From: Cyclobacteriaceae bacterium
GTDB lineage: Bacteria > Bacteroidota > Bacteroidia > Cytophagales > Cyclobacteriaceae
DNA length: 64,000 nt
Reading direction: 5' to 3'
NCBI GenBank assembly: GCA_040218415.1
Contig: JAVJRN010000065.1
Coordinates: forward strand, 1-64,000
The position numbers were made by a program, and so were the translations under genes. The notes beneath the pieces are model-generated. The model did not search any database, was not told where the DNA came from, and saw only the letters and a program-made list of their open reading frames with translations. Shown one piece after another: positions 24,087-37,900 of this stretch (position 1 is its first letter; every line of letters begins with the position of its first letter).

Positions 24087-24899
24087 TTAAAGCATTGATA
24101 TTTTCTGTAATGCTTCCTCCATTTTTTTTTCTAATTTCAGCACTCTTTCCTCCACGATTGAAGGTGGATTAAGGTATTTAGAATAAACCGATTCAATAGA
24201 CCAAATCTCAATTAAGTCGTTATTTTGGATAATTAGTTCAGGGTAGTTTGGGTCATCTGCACTGAGTTTGAGTAATTCTTCTTGGTGCGAGACCATTCTT
24301 CGGGTTGTAATATTCTCACGATTTACCACAGTAATAATTTTTTTCTCATATTGGTGGAGAGAATCAAGTTCTATCCTTTTTCCCACCAGTATGTCGCCAT
24401 GGTGCAATCCTTGTTGATGGTATTCCATTTCGCTACCGTTCATCTCGAATGCTCGATACAAGCTTGGGTCTTTTACGGGTAAATTGATCTGAGTGAGTGT
24501 ATTGATGAAATCTTTCGTATTGTGGCTTACAATGTAGTCAAGGTATTGATGGACTTGCACCAAGCTAATTCCATTGTTTTTTGGCTCGGAGATGTTATTT
24601 TTTTTCGGTTCGAGCTTATGAGCTTTGTTTAGTTTTTGATTCAATAAGTCGATGCTGTAAATCTCGCTTACCGTCAGCTTTCTTGTGAGGAGCACGTCAA
24701 TAGAAATGTTAAAATAACCAGCTATCTGAATCAGCGTGTCGATTTTGGGTTCAGATCGGCCTTCTTCGTAAGCACCAATACTTGGTCGAGCCAGATTGAA
24801 TAAACTCGCGAACTCTGCCTGGCTGATTCTTTTGGTTTGCCTGATCTTTTTGATGTTTTCGCCAATAAAAGATAATTTTTTGCTAATATTTTGAGCCAT
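24087..24899 (-). CDS. XRE-family HTH + S24 (LexA/CI-like) peptidase-domain repressor
   Basis: Track ORF is 24087..24941. The likely start is MAQNISKKLSFIGENIKKIRQTKRISQAEFASLFNLARPSIGAYEEG (an XRE HTH). The C-terminal ...AFEMNGSEMEYHQQGLHHGDILVGKRIEL... matches the S24 Ser-region (GDSM...GD.v.v pattern with Ser retained), with downstream Lys candidates. Confidence 0.6.
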   Translation of the reverse strand: MAQNISKKLSFIGENIKKIRQTKRISQAEFASLFNLARPSIGAYEEGRSEPKIDTLIQIAGYFNISIDVLLTRKLTVSEIYSIDLLNQKLNKAHKLEPKKNNISEPKNNGISLVQVHQYLDYIVSHNTKDFINTLTQINLPVKDPSLYRAFEMNGSEMEYHQQGLHHGDILVGKRIELDSLHQYEKKIITVVNRENITTRRMVSHQEELLKLSADDPNYPELIIQNNDLIEIWSIESVYSKYLNPPSIVEERVLKLEKKMEEALQKISML

Positions 24900-24978
24900 G
24901 CTATAACTTTTATCATTTTGTGTCGTAAACTTACCCAACAATTTAGATTTATTTCGATCAACCGAGAGGGAATTTTTA

Positions 24979-25051: not shown

Positions 25052-25447
25052 ATGAACACACATTTCGCAACTGTTAAGGATTATTTGTTAGAACTCGATT
25101 ACACCATCGTTCAAGAGGATGAAAATGATGGGGTTTTGGTAGTAGAAAATGAGGAGGAAGGGATTAAAAATGTAGTACTTATAATCTCTGACCCAATTCT
25201 AATTGTTGAGCAATATCTTTTTGACCTGCCTAAAAACTCCTCGGATATTTACAAAAAACTGTTGGCAAAAAACAGAGATATTATTCATGGGGCATTTGCC
25301 CTTGACGAAACGGGAAATCGAGTGCTTTTCAGAAATACGCACGAATGTGAAAACCTCGACTTGAACGAGATTGAGGCAACCTTGAATTCTTTATCTCTTT
25401 TGCTCAGTGAGTATGCAGATGAACTAATAGGATTCAGCAAGCAATAA
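25052..25447 (+). CDS. YbjN-like (DUF2170/YjfI-like, T3SS-chaperone-like fold) protein
   Basis: 131 aa and acidic. Size and position immediately upstream of a PspA-family gene mirror E. coli yjfI-yjfJ. The assignment is by context and composition, not a confident motif match. Confidence 0.4.
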   Translation: MNTHFATVKDYLLELDYTIVQEDENDGVLVVENEEEGIKNVVLIISDPILIVEQYLFDLPKNSSDIYKKLLAKNRDIIHGAFALDETGNRVLFRNTHECENLDLNEIEATLNSLSLLLSEYADELIGFSKQ

Positions 25448-25473: not shown

Positions 25474-26178
25474 ATGAACGTTTTTAGAAGATTATTCAGA
25501 GTAGGGGCGGCAGAAACACATGCTGCGATAGATAAGTTGGAAAATCCAATCAAAATGACCGAACAAGGTATTCGAGACCTTAAAAAAGATCTTGATAACA
25601 GCTTAAGGGCGCTTGCCGAGGTAAAGGCCATGGCCATAAGGGCTAGAAATGATGTGCAAACTAACAAATCAAAGGCGCAAGATTACGAAAGCAAAGCCAT
25701 ACAACTTTTGAAGAAAGCGCAAAGTGGAGAATTATCGGCAGAAGATGCAGATAGACTGGCCACAGAAGCGCTAGCGAGAAAGGAAGAGTTTACACAGGCC
25801 ATGAATGTGAGTAGCGCTGAGCGAGAAAGATTTGATAAGAACGTGGCTCAATTAGATGCAACAGTTAAGAAATTGAAATCAAATATCAGTGGCTATGAAA
25901 ATGAGCTAAGAACATTAAAAGCGCGCGTGAAAGTAAGTGAAGCATCAGCAAAGGTGAACAAGCAAATGGCTCAGATAGATGCTTCCAGCACAGTTTCCAT
26001 GCTTGAGCGAATGAAAGAAAAGGTAACTCAGCAGGAAGCCTTGGCGGAAGCTTACGGCGATATCGCTGGTGAATCAAAGACGTTGGATGATGAAATCGAC
26101 TCGGCTCTTGATGGTAAAAGTGCCAAGGCTTCAGATGATCTAGCCGCAATGAAAGCAAAGCTTGGCTTAGACAAATAG
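25474..26178 (+). CDS. PspA/IM30 (phage-shock protein A / Vipp1 / YjfJ) family coiled-coil protein
   Basis: 234 aa. MNVFRRLFRVGAAETHAAIDKLENPIKMTEQGIRDLKKDLDNSLRALAEVKAMAIRARNDV... is a typical PspA N-terminus and heptad-rich body. Confidence 0.85.
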   Translation: MNVFRRLFRVGAAETHAAIDKLENPIKMTEQGIRDLKKDLDNSLRALAEVKAMAIRARNDVQTNKSKAQDYESKAIQLLKKAQSGELSAEDADRLATEALARKEEFTQAMNVSSAERERFDKNVAQLDATVKKLKSNISGYENELRTLKARVKVSEASAKVNKQMAQIDASSTVSMLERMKEKVTQQEALAEAYGDIAGESKTLDDEIDSALDGKSAKASDDLAAMKAKLGLDK

Positions 26179-26255: not shown

Positions 26256-26864
26256 ATGACAGAATTGTTAGCATTCGCCATTTCTGGCGTCAACGTTATA
26301 CCTACGATTTTACTAATTTTTACCGTTTTATATTGGTTAATCGTTGTAGTTGGTGTGATCGATATTGATGCTTTGGATTTGGATTTTGATATGGATGGAG
26401 ATTTAAACGGATTAACAAGCGTTTTGTCTTTTTTCAATATCGGGCACATGCCTTTAATGATATTTGTTACGTTTTTTACAATTCCATTGTGGGCGATTAC
26501 ATTGATTTCCAACGATCTTTTGGGTATATCAAGTTTTATAGCCGGATCGTTAATCTTCATTCTGGCAGCAGTGCTTTCTCTTTTTATAGCGAAGTTCTTT
26601 ACCATTCCGATAGCAAAATTTTATCGTAAAATCAGTAAAGAAACCGAAGCAATCAAAAATCTTATCGGACGAGTATGCACTGCTAAGCTGCCTATTTCGC
26701 ATGATAGAAAGGGGCAGGCTGAAATCAAAATCAATGGAACTTCTATACTGATAACCGCGAAGACAAGAGAGGGGTATTTGGTACAGAAAAATGCAACTGC
26801 ACTCATTATTGAATTTCAAAAAGATCAAAATTTTTATTTCGTAGAACCATATCAATTAAACTAA
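26256..26864 (+). CDS. NfeD-like / YqiJ-like (DUF1449) membrane protein
   Basis: 202 aa. N-terminal multi-TM region plus a C-terminal soluble beta-rich tail (...GRVCTAKLPISHDRKGQAEIKINGTSILITAKT...), as in NfeD OB-fold partners of SPFH proteins. Sits immediately upstream of a flotillin gene, like E. coli yqiJ-yqiK. Confidence 0.5.
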   Translation: MTELLAFAISGVNVIPTILLIFTVLYWLIVVVGVIDIDALDLDFDMDGDLNGLTSVLSFFNIGHMPLMIFVTFFTIPLWAITLISNDLLGISSFIAGSLIFILAAVLSLFIAKFFTIPIAKFYRKISKETEAIKNLIGRVCTAKLPISHDRKGQAEIKINGTSILITAKTREGYLVQKNATALIIEFQKDQNFYFVEPYQLN

Positions 26865-26870
26865 CACTCA

Positions 26871-29036
26871 ATGACCGGACCAATTTTTTATGTAGTTATT
26901 GTCATCTCCGCTTTTGTCTTTATCGGACTTATAACGGCTGTTATCAAAATGTACCGCAAGGCTTTACAAGGCCAAGCTATGGTGCGAACAGGAATGGGGG
27001 GCACCATCGTATCTTTTTCAGGAATTTTTGTTGTGCCTATTATTCATAAGCTGGAGGTAATGGATATTACCCTCAAAACAATCATGATTGCCAGAACTGG
27101 CCGAGAGGGATTGATCTGTAAGGACAACATGCGTGCAGATATTAAAGTGACCTTTTTTGTGAGAGTGAATCAAACCGAACAAGATGTAAAGCAAGTTGCT
27201 CAATCCATTGGGAGTCATAGGGCTTCCAGTCAGGAGTCTTTAGAATTGCTTTTTGATGCCAAGTTTTCTGAGGCTTTAAAAACGGTAGGAAAAAACTTCG
27301 ACTTTGTAGAGTTGTATAGCGGAAGAGACAACTTTAAACAAGACATCCTAAATATCATTGGGACGGATCTTAATGGATATATCCTTGATGACTGTGCTAT
27401 CGACTTCTTAGAGCAGACCCCAATGCGGGAGTTGGATGAGAATAATATTCTCGATGCTGAGGGTATCAAAAAGATTATCGAATTAACATCGGCACAAAAG
27501 ATGTTATCCAATCAAATTCTAAGAGAAAAAGAGAAAACATTAACCAAACAAGATGTTGAAGCAAGAGAAACCATTCTTGAGTTAGAAAGGCAACAAGCAG
27601 AGGCAGAGGCCAAGCAAAAACGAGAAATTGAATCTGCACAGGCCAGAGAAGAGTCAGAAACAGCCAAGGTAAAACAAGAGGAGCGACTTAAATCTGAGCG
27701 GGCACGAATAAGTACGGAAGAAAATCTTCATGTCGCAGAGGAGAATAAGCTCCGGGAAGTGATCGTAGCGCAAAAAAATAAGGAACGTACAGAGGCGATA
27801 GAAACAGAGAAGGTTGATAGAGCTAGACTTCTAGAGCAAACAGATAAGCAACGTTTTGTTGAGATAGCGAACATTGAAAAGGAGAAAGCAGTAGAAGAGG
27901 AACGTAAAAATATTCAAGATGTCATTCGAGAGCGCGTCACAATTGAGAAAACGGTTGTGGAGGAGAAAGAACGAATGAAAGATATTCAAGCCTTTGCTGA
28001 AGCTGATAGAACAAAGAAAGTTGCCATTACTTTAGCGGAGCGCGATGCGGAAGAAGCACTCGTCAAAATGATTAAGGATGCAGAAGCAAGGAAACAAGCT
28101 TCAGAGCATACTGCCAAAAAACAATTGATCGATGCGCAAGCAGCAGAAAATGCCGCAATACATCATGCTCAAGCGAAGAAAACCCTTGCCGAAGCGCAAG
28201 CATCAGAAGCTGCCGCTATAGGCTTGTCAGAAGCACAGGTAATGGAGGCTAAAGCAGCTGCCAAGCAGAAAGAAGGGGACTCAGCTGCTTCCGTGATAGA
28301 ATCGCAAGCAGATGCAGAAGCAAAAGGCATACAGCTGAGAGGCTCGGCTCAGGCAAGAGCTGATCAGGAAATAGGTTCTGTGGCGGCTAAAGTTAATTTT
28401 GAGAAAGGAGAGGCCGAGGCAAATATTATCTCATTGAAAGCCGATGCGGAGCAAAAGAGAGGTTTGGCAGAAGCCAAAGTGATGAAAGAGAAGTTTAGTG
28501 CTGAGGCGGAAGGCATCAAAGAAAAAGCCCAAGCAATGAAAGCTCTTGATGACTCAGGTCGATCTCACGAAGAGTTTAAGCTTCAATTACAAATGAACAA
28601 AGAAGTAGAACTCTCTAGAATCTCTATTCAGAAGGAAATTGCCATGTCACAGGCTTCTGTGATTTCTGAAGCTTTGAAAGCTGCGAAAATTGACATTGTA
28701 GGTGGGGAAACCATGTTCTTCGAGCAGATCGTTGGTGCGATAACCAAAGGTAAAACGATTGATCGAATGCTGACTAATAGCGACGTGTTGACCCAAGTTA
28801 AGGACACCTTCTTTTCAACCGCAAATGGTGATAATTTCAAAGAGAGGTTACGTGACTTTGTAGATCAGTTTGGCTTAAATATTCAGGAAGTAAAAGATCT
28901 AAGCGTTTCTGCTTTGCTATTGAATTTGACAGGTAGAGCTTCAAGTGATGGAGAAAAGAACATGATTTCTCAGTTGGGAAAAGTATCCGAGGCACTTGGT
29001 ATCTCTAATCAGAAAATTGCCGATTTAGGATTGTAA
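26871..29036 (+). CDS. flotillin-family SPFH/Band-7 protein (YqiK-like) with long E/A/K-rich coiled coil
   Basis: 721 aa. N-terminal TM, then an SPFH domain (...MVRTGMGGTIVSFSGIFVVPIIHKLEVMDITLKTIMIAR...), then ~400 aa of EA/K-rich repeats typical of flotillin tails. Confidence 0.85.
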   Translation: MTGPIFYVVIVISAFVFIGLITAVIKMYRKALQGQAMVRTGMGGTIVSFSGIFVVPIIHKLEVMDITLKTIMIARTGREGLICKDNMRADIKVTFFVRVNQTEQDVKQVAQSIGSHRASSQESLELLFDAKFSEALKTVGKNFDFVELYSGRDNFKQDILNIIGTDLNGYILDDCAIDFLEQTPMRELDENNILDAEGIKKIIELTSAQKMLSNQILREKEKTLTKQDVEARETILELERQQAEAEAKQKREIESAQAREESETAKVKQEERLKSERARISTEENLHVAEENKLREVIVAQKNKERTEAIETEKVDRARLLEQTDKQRFVEIANIEKEKAVEEERKNIQDVIRERVTIEKTVVEEKERMKDIQAFAEADRTKKVAITLAERDAEEALVKMIKDAEARKQASEHTAKKQLIDAQAAENAAIHHAQAKKTLAEAQASEAAAIGLSEAQVMEAKAAAKQKEGDSAASVIESQADAEAKGIQLRGSAQARADQEIGSVAAKVNFEKGEAEANIISLKADAEQKRGLAEAKVMKEKFSAEAEGIKEKAQAMKALDDSGRSHEEFKLQLQMNKEVELSRISIQKEIAMSQASVISEALKAAKIDIVGGETMFFEQIVGAITKGKTIDRMLTNSDVLTQVKDTFFSTANGDNFKERLRDFVDQFGLNIQEVKDLSVSALLLNLTGRASSDGEKNMISQLGKVSEALGISNQKIADLGL

Positions 29037-29046
29037 TTATTGCTCA

Positions 29047-29080
29047 AAAGTCAGAGATCGCAAGACTCTGACTTTATTTT
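29047..29080 (+). terminator. hairpin plus T-rich tract between the flotillin gene and the giant ATPase gene
   Basis: aaagtcagag-atcgcaaga-ctctgacttt followed by atttt. Confidence 0.35.
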
Positions 29081-29094
29081 CCATCAAAAATTTT

Positions 29095-32000
29095 ATGGCA
29101 CAAGAATCAAGCAACACTTTGGAGGCAGGAACCTACGAGTTATTACGTAGTAGAATTGTGTCTACTGCCAATCAGCTCAAATCGCAGATACAAAAACTTA
29201 ACGAGGAACGGAAAAATGTTTTCGGTACCATCGAAACAAAAGTTCTGGCCTCCGAGCGTATAACTACGAATAACAATTGCATTCCGTGGGATATGTTTTC
29301 TTTCGGATCAAAGTTTCTCTTCGGATACAATGTGCATGTGGGGCTAAGAAGTGAGGTGAAGATTGATGATGTCTTTAGTTTTTATGAATACCAATCGGAC
29401 CATACATTTCATGAGCTCAACCTTAATTCGATTATAACCGATAGTGTTTTTCTTGACGATTTCCATAAACTATACAAATACTACAAAAACACCCAATTCT
29501 TACGGTTTGCCTCTGTTGGGCCATTTTTTCACATGGTTTTTCGAACTGGAAAGGACGTTAATGACGTCAAGACTTTCAAGTGGCAGATCAAAGAAGAAAA
29601 GCTGATTTATATTGATAATCGCAGTGATCATGAATATAAATTTCCAGCACAATACGAGTTTGAGTGGAAAAGAACCCGACGGCAAGATTATCGTGATGGG
29701 CTACATCCGCATGTGTCGATAGAGGACCGAGTTTTTGTCGAATGTGTTGGAGGAGATTTAACCATTAAGGTAGAAGACAATACTGATGATGGTCAAGGTA
29801 TTTATAGGGAAGATGTAGTTAATTCACTGCAGACACTTGATGATGCCGAATTTAGCTATTCTGTAGTTGGAAATTTGATATTGATAAAGGCTAAACCATA
29901 CCAAGAAGGTGAGCGGTATTTTGTCTTTAACGAAAAATTGAAGGAAGTAAAACGGATAGACACCCTGTCCGAATCGGGCATATTATTGCCTGATAATCAA
30001 GGATTGATATTTAGTAACGGCTATTATTTACAGTCTGGAGAGTTCAAGTTGTTTGATTTAAGTCTTCGTCACATGCTCTTCGAAAGGCGCATCACTTCCC
30101 TGAATGGAGAGGATTTTATTTATGTCTTTTACAATAGAGAAAAGGGTATTTATCTGCTGCTGAACTATAATATTATATCTCAAAAAGTAGAAAATCCGAT
30201 TGTTTGCCATGGTTTTACCACTTTTGAAAATGGCGAAATGTGCGTTTTTAAAGCAGATGATGAACCTAAAAAACACCATGCTATTCAAATATGGCAAACG
30301 CCTTTTACAGGCGTAAACTTTCAGGCCGAAGAAAAATATGATTCTTTTTTGCAGAAAATCGGCAATAAGGAAGTCGTACGTGCCATGGCGGAATGTCAAG
30401 AAATCATCAATCTCATTCATCGAGAGGAGATTTATTCAGATTTATACATCGATATCATTAAGAAAGCTACCGATACGATTGATACCTATCATTGGCTCAA
30501 CACCGAGGGGTATGACTTGGATGCACCGCTCAAAGAAATTCGTGGTGTGGCAGAATCTGCGGTAGATGAATACGAAAAAGTACGGAAAATTCGAGAGACC
30601 TCTGAGCATCGATTAGCAGAATTGGCCGAGTTACACAGCCAGATACTAAAAAAATCGAAAGCTTCTTTTGGGAAAATCACAGCTTATGTAAGTCTTCTTG
30701 GCGAGATAAGGTCGGTAAGAGGAGAGGTCATAAGTGCCAAGGATCTAAGATATATTGATCAGAAAAAACTTGCGTCATTTGATGCTGACTTATCTGAAGC
30801 AGCTGATAATGTATCAGAATCATGTGTGAGATTTCTTGCACAGGATCATGCTTTGAAACCTTTTCATGATAAAATAGTCGAGTTTAAAACGAAAATAGAT
30901 CAAATAAAAAAGGTAGTTGAAGCCAATGAACTACTCCAATCAGGAGAGCAAATTGCGCAGGAGTTAGACCTTTTAATTGAAACTGTAAGCAATTTAAAAA
31001 TTACAGATGCCACACAAACAACAGCCATCATTGAAGGTATTTCGGATATTTATGGAAGCTATAATCAGGTAAAAAATAAACTTTCGAATATTAGAAAAGG
31101 TCTGCTTGAATCGGAAGGTAAAGCGGAGTTTAATGCAACAATCAAGCTCTTGGAGCAAAGCGTATCCAATTATTTGGATATCTGTGACACCCCAGCCCAA
31201 TGTGACGAATACTTGACGAAGTTGATTGTGCAGGTGGAGGAATTGGAAGGAAAATTTTCTGAATTCGACGAGTTCATTGACTTGATTTCTCAAAAGCGTG
31301 AAGAGGTATACAATGCCTTCGAATCAAAAAAACTCTACCTAACCGAGCAAAGAAACAAAAAGGCAAATCAGCTATTTCAAGCCGCTGAAAGAGTTCTGAG
31401 CGCCATTCGCAATAAGTCCGGTACGCTCAAATCCAAGCAAGACATCAATGGTTACTTTGCTTCAGATTTAATGGTGGAGAAAATCAGATCGATTTCCGAT
31501 CAACTACTTTCGATAGGAGAGACTGTAAAGTCGGACGACTTAACCAGTCAGTTGAAAACGATCAAGGAGGATGTGCTGCGTCAATTAAAAGACAAACATG
31601 AACTTTTTGCTGCTGGAGACAATATTATGCAGATGGGAAACCATCAGTTTTTCACGAATAACCTCACGCTTGATTTAAGCATGGTAGTGAAAAATAAAGT
31701 ACCACATTATCACCTTGCAGGAACAGATTTTTACGAGGTGATAAAAAACGACCAACTCGCCGCACTTTCTCATCTCTGGGATCAATCGTTGATTTCCGAA
31801 AACAGTGGTGTATACCGTGCTGAGTATTTGTCTATTTCGCTTTTTGAGTCAATGAGATTGTCAAAACTAGTCCATGAAGAAAAGACGATCAGTTTAGAAA
31901 CTTACCAATTGATGAGTGAAGCGGAAAAAGTGTTTTTTGTGCAAAGGCAAATGGCTACTCGTTATGGCGAGGGCTACATCAAGGGTGTTCATGAATTTGA

Positions 32001-33981
32001 TACCCTCTTGATTCTAAATGAAATCATTTCTCTCAGCCAGTTTGCTGGTCTATTAAAATATGATCCTGACGTAAGAGCTCTGGCAAAATTTTTCTGGAAT
32101 TCTTGCATAGCTGACGAGACTAAAAAGCTCTATGAACGTCAGATAAAAGCTGCGGCACTCATTTTATCCGTCTTTCCTTATTCGAGGGAATTCGAAGGGA
32201 TTGTCAATGACTTGAAAAACGAGGTTCAATCTCAGGAACCAAAGTTTTATGATGTCAAAACAGACTACTTAGCGGTTGCGCAGTATATTTTCGATCAGTT
32301 TTCCGAAGGAGATTATTTTATTGTCAGTCAAGTAGCGTCCGAGTGCCACCAACTCTTTTTGAATCATTTAAAGCAAAGCAAAGCCGATACCCAATTTACA
32401 GCTTCTTTGAAAGGCCTTAGCGATACGCCTGCCTTGTCTATGAGGATGATCCGACAGTGGCTTTCCGCGTTCATTAAGGAAATTGACCAACCTCATTTTT
32501 TGGATTATGCTGATGAAGTCGCTGCGCTGTTATTTTATGAAGATTACAGTGAAATTTATGTCAAAAAAGTAAGTCTATACAAGACAATCGAAGGCTTAAA
32601 AGGCTCACACAAATTAATAGAAGATGGGAAATACACTTTTCATCTAAATAATTTTTTCAAAAGATTATCAGCGTTTATCAGGGTAGATGTTCCTGCTTTT
32701 AAGCAGTTAGCGGCCCTTAAAAAGAGCTTATCTGAAGACTATCGTACTGAACTAAGACTTCATGAGTTTAAACCGCGTGTACTCTCTTCTTTTGTTAGAA
32801 ATCAGCTGATCGATAGTGTTTATTTCCCGCTAATTGGAGCTAACCTAGCCAAGCAAATAGGAACAGCCGGAGAGAATAAGAGAACCGATTTAATGGGTTT
32901 GCTTTTGCTAGTTTCTCCGCCCGGCTATGGTAAAACAACGCTTATGGAGTATATCGCCAGCAGGCTTGGGGTTATTTTTATGAAGATCAATGGACCAGCC
33001 ATTGGTCACGAAGTGACTTCATTAGATCCTGCTGATGCGCCGAACGCTGCTTCTGCTGAGGAATTACAAAAGCTGAATTTGTCTTTTGAAATGGGCAATA
33101 ATGTGATGATTTATCTGGATGATATCCAGCATTGTAATCCCGAATTTCTTCAAAAGTTTATCTCCATGTGTGATGCGCAGCGCAAAATCGAAGGAGTATA
33201 CAAAGGCAAGACCAAAACATATGATTTTCGTGGAAAAAAGGTTTGTGTAGTCATGGCAGGCAATCCTTATACCGAGTCTGGAGATAAGTTTCAAATTCCA
33301 GATATGCTTTCCAATCGAGCAGATATTTATAATCTTGGTGATGTCATAGGAGACTCTGAAGAGGCTTTTAAAATGAGCTACATTGAGAATTGCCTTACTT
33401 CTAATCAAATTTTAAGTCGTTTGGTGTCGAAAAGCCTTTCCGATGTTCGAACTGTTATTAAGTTAGCAGAGCAAGGTTCTGGTGAAGGACTAAAATTTGA
33501 AGTCAACCACACAGCTGAAGAACTTCAGGAATATGTTTCAGTTATTAAGCATTTGATGAGGGCTAGAGATGTTGTACTCGCCGTGAACAGCCAGTACATC
33601 GCATCAGCGGCGATGGCTGAGGAGTATAGAGTAGAGCCTGCTTTTAAACTCCAAGGGTCATATCGAGACATGAATAAGCTTGCTGAAAAAATACTCCCTA
33701 TGATGAATGAAGCTGAGGTGGAGACAATCATACAATCGCACTACGAAAATGAGTCACAGACCTTGACATCAAATGCGGAGGCGAATTTGCTGAGATTTAA
33801 ACAACTAACTGGAGTGCTGAGCCCAGAGCAATCTGATCGTTGGCGGTATATTATTGGCGTTTTCGCTGAAAAGCAAAAGCAATTAGGCTATGGCCAAAAC
33901 GCAAAACTTGTCGAGGGTATTGATGCTATTGCCAACAATCTCAAAGGAATATTGGATAAAATACAACAGAATAAACCTTAA
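29095..33981 (+). CDS. giant (1628 aa) protein with a single C-terminal-third MoxR/AAA_5-type AAA+ ATPase module; N-terminal ~1250 aa of unknown function
   Basis: Uninterrupted 4.9-kb ORF. Walker A ...LLLLVSPPGYGKTTLMEYIA... (nt ~32.92 kb). Walker B ...NVMIYLDDIQHCNPEFLQKF.... Sensor-1/Arg region ...KVCVVMAGNPYTESGDKFQIPDMLSNRADI.... This order and spacing is typical of AAA_5/MoxR/dynein-type modules. I recognise no motif in the rest. Confidence 0.7.
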   Translation: MAQESSNTLEAGTYELLRSRIVSTANQLKSQIQKLNEERKNVFGTIETKVLASERITTNNNCIPWDMFSFGSKFLFGYNVHVGLRSEVKIDDVFSFYEYQSDHTFHELNLNSIITDSVFLDDFHKLYKYYKNTQFLRFASVGPFFHMVFRTGKDVNDVKTFKWQIKEEKLIYIDNRSDHEYKFPAQYEFEWKRTRRQDYRDGLHPHVSIEDRVFVECVGGDLTIKVEDNTDDGQGIYREDVVNSLQTLDDAEFSYSVVGNLILIKAKPYQEGERYFVFNEKLKEVKRIDTLSESGILLPDNQGLIFSNGYYLQSGEFKLFDLSLRHMLFERRITSLNGEDFIYVFYNREKGIYLLLNYNIISQKVENPIVCHGFTTFENGEMCVFKADDEPKKHHAIQIWQTPFTGVNFQAEEKYDSFLQKIGNKEVVRAMAECQEIINLIHREEIYSDLYIDIIKKATDTIDTYHWLNTEGYDLDAPLKEIRGVAESAVDEYEKVRKIRETSEHRLAELAELHSQILKKSKASFGKITAYVSLLGEIRSVRGEVISAKDLRYIDQKKLASFDADLSEAADNVSESCVRFLAQDHALKPFHDKIVEFKTKIDQIKKVVEANELLQSGEQIAQELDLLIETVSNLKITDATQTTAIIEGISDIYGSYNQVKNKLSNIRKGLLESEGKAEFNATIKLLEQSVSNYLDICDTPAQCDEYLTKLIVQVEELEGKFSEFDEFIDLISQKREEVYNAFESKKLYLTEQRNKKANQLFQAAERVLSAIRNKSGTLKSKQDINGYFASDLMVEKIRSISDQLLSIGETVKSDDLTSQLKTIKEDVLRQLKDKHELFAAGDNIMQMGNHQFFTNNLTLDLSMVVKNKVPHYHLAGTDFYEVIKNDQLAALSHLWDQSLISENSGVYRAEYLSISLFESMRLSKLVHEEKTISLETYQLMSEAEKVFFVQRQMATRYGEGYIKGVHEFDTLLILNEIISLSQFAGLLKYDPDVRALAKFFWNSCIADETKKLYERQIKAAALILSVFPYSREFEGIVNDLKNEVQSQEPKFYDVKTDYLAVAQYIFDQFSEGDYFIVSQVASECHQLFLNHLKQSKADTQFTASLKGLSDTPALSMRMIRQWLSAFIKEIDQPHFLDYADEVAALLFYEDYSEIYVKKVSLYKTIEGLKGSHKLIEDGKYTFHLNNFFKRLSAFIRVDVPAFKQLAALKKSLSEDYRTELRLHEFKPRVLSSFVRNQLIDSVYFPLIGANLAKQIGTAGENKRTDLMGLLLLVSPPGYGKTTLMEYIASRLGVIFMKINGPAIGHEVTSLDPADAPNAASAEELQKLNLSFEMGNNVMIYLDDIQHCNPEFLQKFISMCDAQRKIEGVYKGKTKTYDFRGKKVCVVMAGNPYTESGDKFQIPDMLSNRADIYNLGDVIGDSEEAFKMSYIENCLTSNQILSRLVSKSLSDVRTVIKLAEQGSGEGLKFEVNHTAEELQEYVSVIKHLMRARDVVLAVNSQYIASAAMAEEYRVEPAFKLQGSYRDMNKLAEKILPMMNEAEVETIIQSHYENESQTLTSNAEANLLRFKQLTGVLSPEQSDRWRYIIGVFAEKQKQLGYGQNAKLVEGIDAIANNLKGILDKIQQNKP

Positions 33982-33985
33982 AAAA

Positions 33986-34135
33986 ATGACCATTGAATTA
34001 TTAAAGTCTATTTTAATCATCATCGTCGTTATTTTCCTTTTTGGACTCCTATTTAATGTTTTATTTCGAGTTGGATTGATTTTAATGATTTTGCTGGGCA
34101 TACTTTATTTGTTCAAAAAGGTATTTGTTGAGTAG
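33986..34135 (+). CDS. 49-aa hydrophobic two-TM peptide
   Basis: Track ORF 33890..34135 overlaps the end of the giant gene. I trimmed it to the ATG 5 bp after the giant gene's stop: MTIELLKSILIIIVVIFLFGLLFNVLFRVGLILMILLGILYLFKKVFVE. Confidence 0.3.
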   Translation: MTIELLKSILIIIVVIFLFGLLFNVLFRVGLILMILLGILYLFKKVFVE

Positions 34136-34157: not shown

Positions 34158-34703
34158 ATGTTTAATCTATTTAAGAAGAAAAAAGAGGAGCCATTGTACG
34201 ATGTTACAAACCTCAGCGTGAAGGATCTCGATGTGGGATTTGTGTTTGATTATGACATGAAATCTTGGATAGTCAAAGAAGTTCTAGAGTACGATTGGGG
34301 CAACAATAATTTTACGCGAGAGTATAAAGTAGATAGTGGTGATGAGGTTCGGTTTCTCGAAGTGGAGGATGATGACGAGTTGTTCATTGTTTTGTCCAAT
34401 TCCATTAGCCTTAGGAAAATAGAAGAAGACGTGGCGGAAAAAATCCGGAAAAAAGGCAAATCACATAAGAAAATTCAGTTTGAAGAGGAAACTTATTTCT
34501 TGGAGGAAGAATCAGCTGGATATTTTAAAAGTGCTGCCAAAAAAGGAGATGATTGGGAGGAGTTTATAACCTGGCAATATTTGAATGAAGAAGAAACCCG
34601 TGTCGTATCTTTGACACAGTGGGATGAGCAAAACATTGAAGCTTCGGCAGGGATAGTGGTAAAACCTTATCAGATATCTAACATAACACCAAGCGGAAAT
34701 TAA
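34158..34703 (+). CDS. DUF4178-like protein
   Basis: 181 aa. Two beta-rich half-repeats with W/Y-rich cores (...KSWIVKEVLEYDWGNNNFTREYKVDSGDEVRFLEVEDDD... and ...WEEFITWQYLNEEETRVVSLTQWDE...) resemble the DUF4178 pattern as I remember it. The PspA / DUF350 context supports this. Not profile-verified. Confidence 0.4.
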   Translation: MFNLFKKKKEEPLYDVTNLSVKDLDVGFVFDYDMKSWIVKEVLEYDWGNNNFTREYKVDSGDEVRFLEVEDDDELFIVLSNSISLRKIEEDVAEKIRKKGKSHKKIQFEEETYFLEEESAGYFKSAAKKGDDWEEFITWQYLNEEETRVVSLTQWDEQNIEASAGIVVKPYQISNITPSGN

Positions 34704-34740: not shown

Positions 34741-35469
34741 ATGAAATACCAAATTCTAAAATATTTATGCTTGTTTACTTTGGCGTTTTTCGTCTCTTCA
34801 TGTGGAGGTCCAAAGTATCAAAAAAATCCTTTAGATGTAATTGCTCGCGACTTGCCTAGTGATAAGCCTTTCACAGCGATACTCTATGACATGGATGTAA
34901 AAGGTAATTTTATAGAGACGTATTATCATCAATATAAAATTGTGCAAGACGATGGTAATGGAAACTTAGACGAGTTCACCACAGGAATGCTCGAAGTGAG
35001 TAAGGAAACATTCAACAAGCATATCAATGACATGGGAATGGAGCTCATGGCGCGAGATAGCACGGGTCAGTTGAGTAAAGGGGCTGCACCTCCGGGTTAC
35101 AACAATTATGTAGGGAATGAAAAATATGGCCAGTGGAAAACCGACAATAGCGGCAATAGTTTTTGGGCTTTTTACGGTCAATATGCTATGATGTCAACCA
35201 TGTTTAATATGATGGCTTACCCTGCTCGTAGAAGTTACTACAACGATTGGCGAGGAGGCTATGCGGGAACTGGTCGAGGTTATTATGGGCCGTCAAATGG
35301 TGGAAGCAGCTACTATGGCACTAATAGCGCTCATGGCCGTAGTACAAAACCTAGTTCAAGTTGGAGCAAAAAGAGATCTTCATTTAGACAAAATGTAGCT
35401 TCTAGAACCTCGAGATCATCTTCGAGTTCAAGTGGATATCGTTCCCGAAGCGGATCCTACGGAAAATAA
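34741..35469 (+). CDS. lipoprotein with Gly/Tyr-rich region and Ser/Arg-rich C-terminal tail
   Basis: 242 aa with lipobox (...FFVSSCGGPK). C-terminus is ...SRTSRSSSSSSGYRSRSGSYGK. Possibly the YdjH/DUF4247-type lipoprotein partner of PspA loci (inference). Confidence 0.5.
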   Translation: MKYQILKYLCLFTLAFFVSSCGGPKYQKNPLDVIARDLPSDKPFTAILYDMDVKGNFIETYYHQYKIVQDDGNGNLDEFTTGMLEVSKETFNKHINDMGMELMARDSTGQLSKGAAPPGYNNYVGNEKYGQWKTDNSGNSFWAFYGQYAMMSTMFNMMAYPARRSYYNDWRGGYAGTGRGYYGPSNGGSSYYGTNSAHGRSTKPSSSWSKKRSSFRQNVASRTSRSSSSSSGYRSRSGSYGK

Positions 35470-35499: not shown

Positions 35500-36360
35500 A
35501 TGCAAATACTCGATAACGTACTTACTAGTCTCACCTACATTGTTGCCAGTTTTATTCTTTTTTTTGTTGGGAAGTTGGTTTATCAACTTTTTCATCCAAA
35601 AATTAAAGTGGCTCATGAGCTGGTTGAAAAGGACAACCTAGCATTTTCCGTTGCGCATGTTGGCTATTTTGTAGGGCTCCTATTGGCTATAGGCAGTGCA
35701 GTGATGGGCGAGTCGTATGGTTTGGTCAATGACTTGATCAATATTGGTATTTACGGTGCGCTATCTATCGTGCTACTCAACCTATCGTTGATCATCAATG
35801 ATAAGTTGATTTTATCAAAATTTGACTTAAAGAAGGAAATCATAGATGATCAGAACTTGGGTTCTGGTATTGTAGAAGGTGCCAATGGGATCGCTACAGG
35901 ATTGGTGGTATTGGGCGCCATACATGGTGAAGGATTTGGGGTTGGCGGACCGATAGTCACTGCTGTCTGTTACTGGATACTTGGTCAGTTGATTTTATTC
36001 ATTACCACTTTCGTGTATAATGCCATCACTCCATACGATATTCATGAGCATATCGAAAAGAAAAATACCGCAGTGGCCATCGGCTATGCAGGCGCTATTA
36101 TTGCCATTGCGAACCTGATCCGTTTTGCATTGATGCATGATTTTGAAAGCTGGGTGATTACTCTACAGGACGTAGCAATAGATGTGACGATCGGGTTGAT
36201 ATTTTTGCCAATCGCACGTTTTGTTACCGATAAAATATTGCTTCCAGGACAAAATATTACTGATGAGATTGTGAATCAAGAGCATCCTAACTGTGGAGCT
36301 GCGCTGGTGGAGGCATTCGCATATATTGGTGGTTCAGTATTGATTTGTTGGGCGTTATAG
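35500..36360 (+). CDS. membrane protein with two DUF350-type repeats (YjfL-like)
   Basis: 286 aa polytopic. Each repeat carries the DUF350 signature: ...LFHPKIKVAHELVEKDNLAFSVAHVGYFVGLLLAI... and ...AITPYDIHEHIEKKNTAVAIGYAGAIIAIANLI... (compare the E. coli YjfL pattern TPY-x-EEI-xxGN-AvA). Confidence 0.55.
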   Translation: MQILDNVLTSLTYIVASFILFFVGKLVYQLFHPKIKVAHELVEKDNLAFSVAHVGYFVGLLLAIGSAVMGESYGLVNDLINIGIYGALSIVLLNLSLIINDKLILSKFDLKKEIIDDQNLGSGIVEGANGIATGLVVLGAIHGEGFGVGGPIVTAVCYWILGQLILFITTFVYNAITPYDIHEHIEKKNTAVAIGYAGAIIAIANLIRFALMHDFESWVITLQDVAIDVTIGLIFLPIARFVTDKILLPGQNITDEIVNQEHPNCGAALVEAFAYIGGSVLICWAL

Positions 36361-36364
36361 ACTT

Positions 36365-37900
36365 TTGAAATACACCAGCACTTTACTTAAGGTTGCCTTA
36401 TTTGCTACTGGTTTATCCGGTATTGTTTCCGAATACACTTTATCCACTCTTGCCACATATTTCTTAGGAGACTCTGTTTTCCAGTGGACAATGATTGTTT
36501 CGGTCATGCTTTTCTCCATGGGCCTGGGGAGTCGATTGAGTAAAAAATTTGAAACGAACCTTATGGAGCGTTTCGTTCTCATCGAATTCGGATTATCGTG
36601 TATCGCATCTAATGTTACCTTGATTGTATACTCAGTATTTGCTGTCTACGGACAAACTGCCATTGTTATCTACGGGCTTTGCATCACTATTGGTCTATTT
36701 ATCGGGATGGAAATTCCCATCGTTATCCGACTCAACGAACAATTCCAAAGTCTTAAAGTCAATATATCTTCCGCACTGGAAAATGATTATTATGGGAGTT
36801 TAGCAGGAGGTGTTTTTTTTGCATTCATCGGCTTGCCATATTTAGGCTTGACGTATACGCCTCCAATTTTAGGAGCCGTCAATTTCTTTGTGGCTTTGGT
36901 ACTCATCTATGCTGTATGGGAGGAAGTTAAAGCCCAGAAGAAACGATTCATTCTATATTCTGGCATTGTTTTGCTCATTCTACTTTTGAATCTCATTTTC
37001 TCACAGCGAATCGTTGAGTGGGGAGATAAAATCAGGTACCAGGATAGAGTCGTTTACAGTGAGCAGAGTCGATATCAGAAAATAATTTTGACTTATGACA
37101 GAGGTGATTTTTGGCTTTTTCTCAACGGACATCAACAACTGAGTTCCTTTGATGAGGCCATGTATCACGAACCACTCGTGCACCCTGCCATGTTACTTCA
37201 GGGAGACACACGTCGAGTTTTGGTTTTGGGTGGGGGAGATGGTGCAGCAGTCCGAGAAGTATTGAAATACGAACAAGTCGAAGAAATTACCTTGGTCGAT
37301 CTTGATCCGGCGGTTACTTCGCTCGCGTCTAATCACTCCGCCTTGGTTCAAATCAATAAAAATTCGCTAGCAGACCCAAAAGTGCGAATAATCAACCAAG
37401 ACGGGTTCACTTTTTTGGCAGATATAACAAAAAAGTACGATGTAATTATCGCAGATTTTCCTGATCCTAGAACTGTAGATTTGGGTCGGTTATATTCTTT
37501 GGAGTTTTATCAATTATGCTACGCTGCATTGACCCAACATGGTGTGTTTGTTACTCAGGCCGGAAGTCCATATTATGCAACACAGGCTTTTCATTGTATT
37601 GAAAAAACCATAAAAGCAGCCGGTTTCAATCCATTGCCCTTGCACAATCAAGTAGTGACCTTGGGCGAATGGGGCTGGATCATAGGCGTTAAAAACTCTC
37701 GTAAAAACCTTCAGCACGCTGTGCAAAATTTATCATTGGATCATGTGCAGACGGCTTGGCTTACGGAAGATGCACTCACACTGATCAGCTCGTTTGGTGG
37801 GAAGATATTTGATCAGCCAACTGAGTTGATTGAAATCAACAGATTGCATGATCCGGTACTTTTCAAATACTACATGAATGGACGTTGGGATGTTTATTGA
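36365..37900 (+). CDS. membrane-anchored polyamine aminopropyltransferase (spermidine/spermine synthase, N-terminal polytopic domain + C-terminal SpeE domain)
   Basis: 511 aa. ~200 aa of TM helices, then ...RVLVLGGGDGAAVREVLKYEQVEEITLVDLDPAV... (GGGDG dcSAM motif) and ...YDVIIADFPDP..., the SpeE hallmarks. Starts 5 bp after the DUF350 gene. Confidence 0.75.
   Translation: MKYTSTLLKVALFATGLSGIVSEYTLSTLATYFLGDSVFQWTMIVSVMLFSMGLGSRLSKKFETNLMERFVLIEFGLSCIASNVTLIVYSVFAVYGQTAIVIYGLCITIGLFIGMEIPIVIRLNEQFQSLKVNISSALENDYYGSLAGGVFFAFIGLPYLGLTYTPPILGAVNFFVALVLIYAVWEEVKAQKKRFILYSGIVLLILLLNLIFSQRIVEWGDKIRYQDRVVYSEQSRYQKIILTYDRGDFWLFLNGHQQLSSFDEAMYHEPLVHPAMLLQGDTRRVLVLGGGDGAAVREVLKYEQVEEITLVDLDPAVTSLASNHSALVQINKNSLADPKVRIINQDGFTFLADITKKYDVIIADFPDPRTVDLGRLYSLEFYQLCYAALTQHGVFVTQAGSPYYATQAFHCIEKTIKAAGFNPLPLHNQVVTLGEWGWIIGVKNSRKNLQHAVQNLSLDHVQTAWLTEDALTLISSFGGKIFDQPTELIEINRLHDPVLFKYYMNGRWDVY

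Follow-up and report, generated by a model that had tools for sequence, protein, structure and literature searches.

The window analysed here is a stretch of 64,000 nt from a Cyclobacteriaceae bacterium (GenBank assembly GCA_040218415.1, contig JAVJRN010000065.1). On its forward strand lies a gene (29095–33981) that encodes an AAA+ ATPase of 1628 aa, belonging to the DUF3686 family. The gene is an uninterrupted 4.9-kb reading frame that begins with ATG and terminates with the TAA stop codon at 33979–33981. It follows the end of a flotillin-like gene (29036) after a gap of 58 bp, and a gap of 4 bp separates its stop codon from the ATG (33986) of a gene for a hydrophobic peptide of 49 aa. The reading frame, the spacing and the motifs quoted in a first-pass annotation of this DNA all agree with the list of open reading frames and the translation. 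The frame is not a chance one because it has thousands of homologues; a single word-indexed search returned >4900 at E ≤ 1e-5, and the N-terminal 700 aa matched 896 clusters in a library of representatives at 50% identity. The 58-bp gap contains a 10-bp inverted repeat (AAAGTCAGAG and CTCTGACTTT, flanking a 9-nt loop) followed by ATTTT (29047–29075, forward strand). As read from the sequence this is a possible attenuator or processing site; it is absent from the output of the terminator scan, in which loops were limited to 8 nt.

The ATPase gene is the third of a conserved triad, the other two members of which lie directly upstream on the same strand. The first (26256–26864) encodes a YqiJ/YuaF (NfeD2-like) membrane protein of 202 aa with several hydrophobic segments. 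Seven of the 23 members of its family match Pfam YqiJ_N (best E = 1e-6), and the homologue in Hymenobacter is annotated as DUF1449. The second (26871–29036) encodes a divergent flotillin-like protein of the SPFH/Band-7 type, 721 aa in length, that matches NCBIfam FloT over aa 45–280 (E = 1.6e-4). Starting at the N-terminus, the chain forms a single transmembrane segment followed by the sequence KMYRK, and then continues as the SPFH domain, a long Ala/Glu-rich helical region and a conserved C-terminal domain. By the positive-inside rule the bulk of the protein is probably cytoplasmic. The window protein is highly divergent and is missed by Pfam Band_7; three of the 23 aligned members of the family match this model (best E = 3e-13), the family profile matches QmcA (E = 4e-4), and the homologue on plasmid pQBR103 is annotated as an ‘SPFH domain-containing protein’.

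Upstream of the triad are a gene for a CesT/Tir-like (YbjN-like) small chaperone-type protein (25052–25447; Pfam CesT_Tir_1, E = 3.7e-53) and one for a PspA/IM30 protein of the ESCRT-III superfamily (25474–26178; Pfam PspA_IM30, E = 5e-42), both on the forward strand. These are preceded by a divergently transcribed gene on the reverse strand (24087–24941) for an XRE-type HTH regulator (Pfam HTH_3, E = 3.5e-12). The C-terminal half of the regulator weakly resembles S24 peptidases (Peptidase_S24, E = 1e-3, under the cut-off), and the alignment shows no conservation of its Ser/Lys dyad. The homologue on a Hymenobacter plasmid is labelled ‘LexA family transcriptional regulator’ by NCBI. The window also contains, 2 kb upstream, a gene for an SRAP (SOS-response-associated peptidase), which it shares with its 90% relative only.

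Downstream of the ATPase gene, and again on the forward strand, the gene for the hydrophobic peptide (33986–34135) is followed by those for a DUF4178 protein (34158–34703; Pfam E = 6.5e-19), a predicted lipoprotein with a signal peptide ending in FVSSC (34741–35469), a YjfL-type DUF350 protein with multiple transmembrane segments (35500–36360; Pfam DUF350, E = 9e-55) and a membrane-fused polyamine aminopropyltransferase, i.e. a spermidine or spermine synthase (36365–37900). The last of these matches NCBIfam PRK03612 above the cut-off (E = 7e-164) and Pfam Spermine_synth (E = 3e-42). The DUF4178 gene is found downstream of the ATPase in six loci besides the window, and in the same six it is accompanied by the lipoprotein, DUF350 and SpeE genes. 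The PspA, SPFH/NfeD and DUF350 neighbours named in the first-pass annotation are thus real, as is the membrane context of the gene.

Several other features were considered and set aside. An open reading frame comparable to the 49-aa peptide follows the ATPase in just seven of 74 loci, and recognisable relatives occur in five of those, all from close relatives. A tRNA-Lys gene beside the regulator might have pointed to a mobile element, but it is shared with the 90% relative only; an Rfam scan returned this tRNA and nothing else. A LytTR two-component pair is a neighbour in three to four loci. A scan for sigma-70 promoters, using a consensus unsuited to Bacteroidota, gave no more matches than were found in shuffled sequence.

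The ATPase has no predicted transmembrane segment (the peak Kyte–Doolittle hydropathy over 19 residues is 1.27), and is most likely a soluble, cytoplasmic protein of about 185 kDa. Conservation extends over its entire length in the alignments. The residues outside aa ~1270–1420 had been thought unrecognisable, and the ~1250 aa preceding the AAA+ module unassignable, but two Pfam families are readily detected there. DUF3686 (PF12458) covers aa 28–466 (E = 3.8e-181; score 602.9 bits, cut-off 25) and DUF7902 (PF25472) covers aa 585–668 (E = 1e-24; score 87 bits, cut-off 26), and confident fold assignments can be made for this region. AlphaFold (AF2) models have pLDDT values of 87–92 and divide the chain into five parts. 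After an N-terminal helix (aa 13–43) the protein is predicted to form a propeller-like beta-rich domain (aa ~46–405; 29230–30309) that is the core of DUF3686. This head is an atypical propeller, with TM ≤ 0.42 to solved propellers. The chain then continues as a rod of spectrin-like three-helix bundles recognised by fold search, about 430 aa in length and containing DUF7902 (aa ~406–840; 30310–31614), and as a family-specific middle domain of ~390 aa (aa ~841–1229; 31615–32781) that comprises a small beta unit and a helical domain and carries the near-invariant motif EGYxKGVHxxD at aa ~961–971; G964, H966 and D969 of this domain are invariant. There follow the alpha/beta core of the AAA+ module (aa ~1230–1440; 32782–33414) and a helical lid with a C-terminal helical extension (aa ~1441–1628; 33415–33978). 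Both the models and the fold searches therefore give the order propeller-like, helical, C-terminal AAA+. Between two conserved motifs the N-terminal part measures 1228–1366 aa across phyla. The length of the tail differs by phylum, and in some homologues from Planctomycetota, Verrucomicrobiota and Desulfobacterota the C-terminus is extended by anything from tens of residues to about 200. The length of the arm correlates weakly with that of the flotillin helical region (rho = 0.26, p = 0.04), a value uncorrected for phylogeny that we treat as uninformative.

The AAA+ module is single, as the first-pass annotation had it; the Pfam scan finds one P-loop in the protein, and a search for GK[ST] P-loops gives a single one, at aa 1279. 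All of the AAA+ elements are present. Walker A (SPPGYGKTT, aa 1274–1282) includes K1280, and Walker B of the form hhhhDD (MIYLDDIQH, aa 1338–1346, followed by CNPEFLQKF) includes D1342 and D1343. Sensor 1 is N1390 in MAGNPY (aa 1387–1392), the candidate arginine finger is R1408 in SNRADI (aa 1406–1411), and the candidate for sensor 2 is R1524 at the end of QGSYR in the lid region. The catalytic motifs are near-invariant across 307 full-length members of the family; QGSYR is kept in 302 of these, and its arginine is invariant in the alignments. Two of the elements are variants, with Walker A starting with S instead of G, and Walker B having DD where DE is usual. Because of the latter, catalysis may be unusual in its rate or its mechanism.

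The DD variant could mean slow, switch-like hydrolysis, which might suit a mainly structural protein, in which the spectrin-like arms formed a sub-membrane skeleton and the ATPase served as an ATP-switched tether linking flotillin domains mutually or to another structure, rather than as a processive unfoldase or disassemblase. The extent of the predicted bundles and the tight constraint on N-terminal length are consistent with this. However, the arginine finger and sensor 2 are among the catalytic elements that are near-invariant, as in a working motor, and the nearest structural neighbours of the module are remodelling motors, so we consider a tether unlikely.

The class of the module was assigned from its Pfam match and from structure. 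Pfam AAA_5 matches above its cut-off. The Pfam AAA match (30.1 bits) is driven chiefly by the Walker A region, as are the sequence matches in the PDB; there, single-sequence and family-profile searches matched the Walker A region alone (E about 1e-3), and do not place the protein. By fold search of the model, the closest neighbours are MoxR proteins (CbbQ, NorQ and RavA) and the modules of dynein and midasin. A pre-sensor-1 beta-hairpin (aa ~1364–1377) is modelled as two strands (model residues 525–530 and 533–538) between Walker B and sensor 1. No helix-2 insert beta-hairpin is seen in the model, where aa 1300–1317 form a conserved loop of 18 residues with a four-residue helix. Extra helices are modelled before the sensor-2 helix, and the CbbQ and NorQ chains can be superposed over about 90% of their length; this is suggestive, but no more, of a pre-sensor-2 helical insert that would reposition the lid. 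With both the pre-sensor-1 hairpin and the invariant R1524, the protein falls outside the classical AAA clade of Vps4, p97 and FtsH, which lacks both and is marked by a second region of homology.

The AAA_5 match, and the name ‘MoxR-like ATPase’ that JGI gives to one homologue, would accord with a canonical MoxR-type chaperone that acts with a VWA/MIDAS partner in the maturation of a metalloenzyme or complex. We regard this as highly improbable. As had been noted at first pass, no VWA partner is evident; there is no VWA/MIDAS domain in the ATPase, in its neighbours in the window or in the families conserved around 80 loci. The protein is about five times the size of a MoxR protein and has no match to AAA_3, the Pfam family of MoxR proper. 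No literature joining MoxR with flotillin or SPFH proteins was found among the matches listed.

The database names for this family, ‘DNA repair ATPase’ at NCBI and ‘ATPase involved in DNA repair’ in Pfam, point elsewhere. The latter is the COG name of SbcC, and long helical regions often draw labels of this sort. The first-pass annotation held that a confident match to a known, unrelated family, for example of DNA-repair ATPases, would refute its interpretation; such a match exists in name, with nothing found that backs the name, which is unsupported. A role in DNA repair could draw on these names, on the SRAP gene of the window and on the ‘LexA family’ label, and on nothing else. Against it, the DUF3686 region (aa 28–466) is all-beta and lacks a P-loop, the sole P-loop being that of the AAA+ module. 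The protein contains neither an ABC signature (LSGG) nor a zinc hook (CxxC), and every segment of it is net acidic. The conserved neighbours include no nuclease or repair gene, SRAP being confined to the window and its 90% relative, and the S24 part of the regulator is weak and lacks the conserved dyad. The context largely refutes this reading, and it is scarcely credible.

The constant association of the ATPase is with the triad. Synteny was counted at the 63 genome loci for which 3.3 kb or more of DNA is available upstream. In 60 of these a flotillin-like gene, and in 59 a YqiJ-like gene, is found directly upstream in the same orientation, with gaps that are often <100 bp or with an 11-bp gene overlap. 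The flotillin gene is present in 27/29 loci from Bacteroidota, 12/12 from Planctomycetota, 14/14 from Verrucomicrobiota, 5/5 from Bacillota, 1/1 from Fibrobacterota and 1/2 from Desulfobacterota; the three loci where none adjoins the ATPase are L012, L027 and L070. The triad recurs in all seven of a set of distant loci, from Streptomyces, Aquincola, Proteus mirabilis, Vibrio campbellii, a metagenome member at 25% identity, the Pseudomonas plasmid pQBR103 and one Hymenobacter plasmid, bringing the total with flotillin to 67 of 70 in eight or more phyla. Among gene families around 80 loci, no neighbour outside the triad is conserved across phyla. Co-occurrence of the orthologues with flotillin and PspA genes had been proposed as a test; for flotillin the outcome is positive (60/63 and 7/7), but the link to PspA is not general.

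PspA adjoins the triad in 22 of 28 loci from Bacteroidota, and in 20 of 28 a homologue of the regulator is likewise placed and transcribed divergently. It is mainly in this phylum that the ATPase is found together with PspA, CesT and the XRE-type regulator; the polyamine module is rarer. The position of the ATPase gene beside PspA in Bacteroidota suggests that a polymer on the membrane is controlled at the cost of ATP. The ATPase might act mainly on PspA, as a functional analogue of Vps4 that disassembles or recycles PspA polymers, with flotillin just the membrane platform. CesT and PspA are co-operonic in the window and in those 22 loci, and elsewhere PspA occurs upstream on pQBR103 and beside the triad in one locus from Phycisphaerae. 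According to a recent review (PMC7619361), bacteria have no known Vps4-like ATPase that regulates PspA. In Bacillus subtilis an SPFH protein is reported to recruit PspA. In contrast, PspA is adjacent in none of 31 non-Bacteroidota loci with at least 6.5 kb of upstream DNA, while flotillin nearly always is. The ATPase also lacks an MIT-like domain, and its pre-sensor-1 hairpin and sensor-2 arginine place it among AAA+ proteins outside the clade of Vps4. PspA is thus an improbable principal substrate.

A further possibility is that the locus serves in conflict or in defence against phage, with a large ATPase and membrane proteins forming a membrane effector of the abortive-infection type. An HKD phospholipase-D gene lies right after the ATPase in Aquincola, and in some Proteobacteria too (Ravi et al., PMC11237479). 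Some loci have small DUF559 endonuclease-like and DMP19-like genes between flotillin and ATPase, copies of the ATPase occur on megaplasmids, and in the P-loop region PADLOC gives weak matches to mad8, IetA and TRIP13. These matches are marginal, however (E about 1e-3 to 1e-2), and are confined to the generic AAA+ core. No homologue of the ATPase was found among 50,697 phage records. The gene order is stable across whole lineages and involves stress genes of a housekeeping type; known defence genes are not among the conserved neighbours. Defence is accordingly a very unlikely function.

The ATPase had been thought to be of a kind not yet described. In fact, both the operon and a ‘beta-propeller + coiled-coil + AAA+’ architecture have been reported in silico (Ravi et al. 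2024, mSystems, PMC11237479), and the window protein is a further member of a known, widespread and uncharacterised family. The ATPase of that account has the same domain order and corresponds to the Pfam DUF3686/DUF7902 proteins. The order given for Dokdonia is that of the window: a divergent cHTH+protease gene, CesT_Tir, PspA, YqiJ-YuaF, Band-7+coiled-coil+flotillin and Betapropeller+Coiled-coil+AAA-ATPase. The association with Band-7 and the optional upstream CesT/Tir-PspA dyad are both seen here. The window joins the ‘group 1’ operon of these authors to their ‘group 2’ polyamine operon (DUF4178, lipoprotein, DUF350 and TM-spermine synthase), its lipoprotein being their ‘novel lipoprotein’; relative to their operons the gene for the 49-aa peptide is an insertion. 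The same contextual inference was drawn independently in that study. No experimental study of DUF3686/PF12458 proteins, of a flotillin-linked ‘DNA repair ATPase’ or of an ATPase linked to YqiK and YqiJ was found in the literature.

The present analysis goes beyond the 2024 account in several respects. The core triad is quantified, and its universal partners (flotillin and YqiJ) are told apart from the lineage-specific ones (PspA and the polyamine genes). The motor is placed nearest the MoxR/dynein group, lacking a VWA partner, and the propagated name ‘DNA repair ATPase’ is found to lack support. In the models the ‘coiled coil’ of the arm becomes a set of spectrin-like three-helix bundles and the ‘beta-propeller’ an atypical one, and the ~390-aa middle domain is added to the architecture. 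Of the earlier interpretation as a whole, the single AAA+ module, the missing VWA partner and the membrane context stand; the unassignable N-terminus, the undescribed kind and the general link to PspA do not.

Gene neighbourhood is evidence of a functional link, not of mechanism or substrate. The near-constant adjacency to the flotillin gene pair means that the ATPase probably remodels that membrane scaffold. We consider it the dedicated third component of a YqiJ/NfeD–flotillin–ATPase unit and an ATP-driven remodeller of the scaffold, a reading to which we give a probability of about 0.6. The C-terminal MoxR/dynein-type module would oligomerise, probably as a hexamer, and hydrolyse ATP. The N-terminal part of ~1230 residues would act as a long arm, made up of the propeller-like head, the spectrin-like rod and the middle domain, and would recognise the membrane-bound NfeD–flotillin assembly, presumably by direct contact. 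Turnover of ATP might assemble, open, disassemble or clear the SPFH scaffold or the clients that it holds. In Bacteroidota, the window included, the unit appears to be wired into a stress operon with CesT–PspA and the divergent XRE-type regulator, joined in a few lineages by the DUF4178, lipoprotein, DUF350 and spermidine synthase module.

A bolder form of this proposal is tentative, and we think it rather doubtful. The family could be the missing ATP-driven engine of bacterial SPFH/flotillin cages, and also of ESCRT-III-like repair assemblies at loci that encode PspA as well, a six-armed motor of the MoxR/dynein type whose propeller-like heads grip the cytoplasmic dome of flotillin and open or dismantle it. 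If true, a role analogous to that of Vps4, possibly extending to membrane repair, would be performed by an unrelated machine. For the question of how bacteria build flotillin/SPFH scaffolds and PspA polymers and take them down again, an ATPase tied by synteny to the NfeD–flotillin pair in at least eight phyla is the obvious candidate; it would regulate these scaffolds at the expense of energy. It occurs in the tractable Proteus mirabilis, Vibrio campbellii and Streptomyces, and on the Pseudomonas fluorescens plasmid pQBR103.

The ATPase may be compared with a number of known systems. With the MoxR group (CbbQ, NorQ and RavA), dynein and midasin it has in common the pre-sensor-1 hairpin, the sensor-1 asparagine within ‘NP’, an arginine before beta5 and the sensor-2 arginine, and like the MoxR group it appears to be of the remodelling type, with no fusion to a protease or helicase. 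MoxR proteins are about 270–500 aa in length and have a VWA/MIDAS partner, whereas the ATPase has 1628 aa and no such partner, and dynein and midasin contain six AAA modules per chain where the ATPase has one. The absence of a modelled helix-2 hairpin, the DD of Walker B and the serine that begins Walker A also set it apart from the MoxR group. Proteins of the SbcC/Rad50/RecN type have a P-loop at the N-terminus and, beyond a coiled coil, the signature and Walker B motifs at the C-terminus, together with a zinc hook and a nuclease partner; neither that arrangement nor a zinc hook is found here, and no nuclease gene is conserved nearby. Like Vps4, the ATPase of Bacteroidota is encoded beside a protein of the ESCRT-III superfamily (PspA), but Vps4 belongs to a different AAA+ clade, the ATPase has no MIT domain and its constant partner is flotillin, not PspA. 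The YuaF/YqiJ (NfeD2) and FloT/YqiK operons contain the same gene pair as that upstream of the ATPase; those of B. subtilis and Escherichia coli end at two or three genes and are not known to include such an ATPase. FtsH–HflK/C is a precedent for an SPFH cage that encloses or partners an AAA+ enzyme, the two kinds of protein being paired as they are here. FtsH is anchored in the membrane, belongs to the classical AAA clade and is fused to a protease, whereas the ATPase, which is predicted to be soluble, lacks a protease domain and has a long arm.

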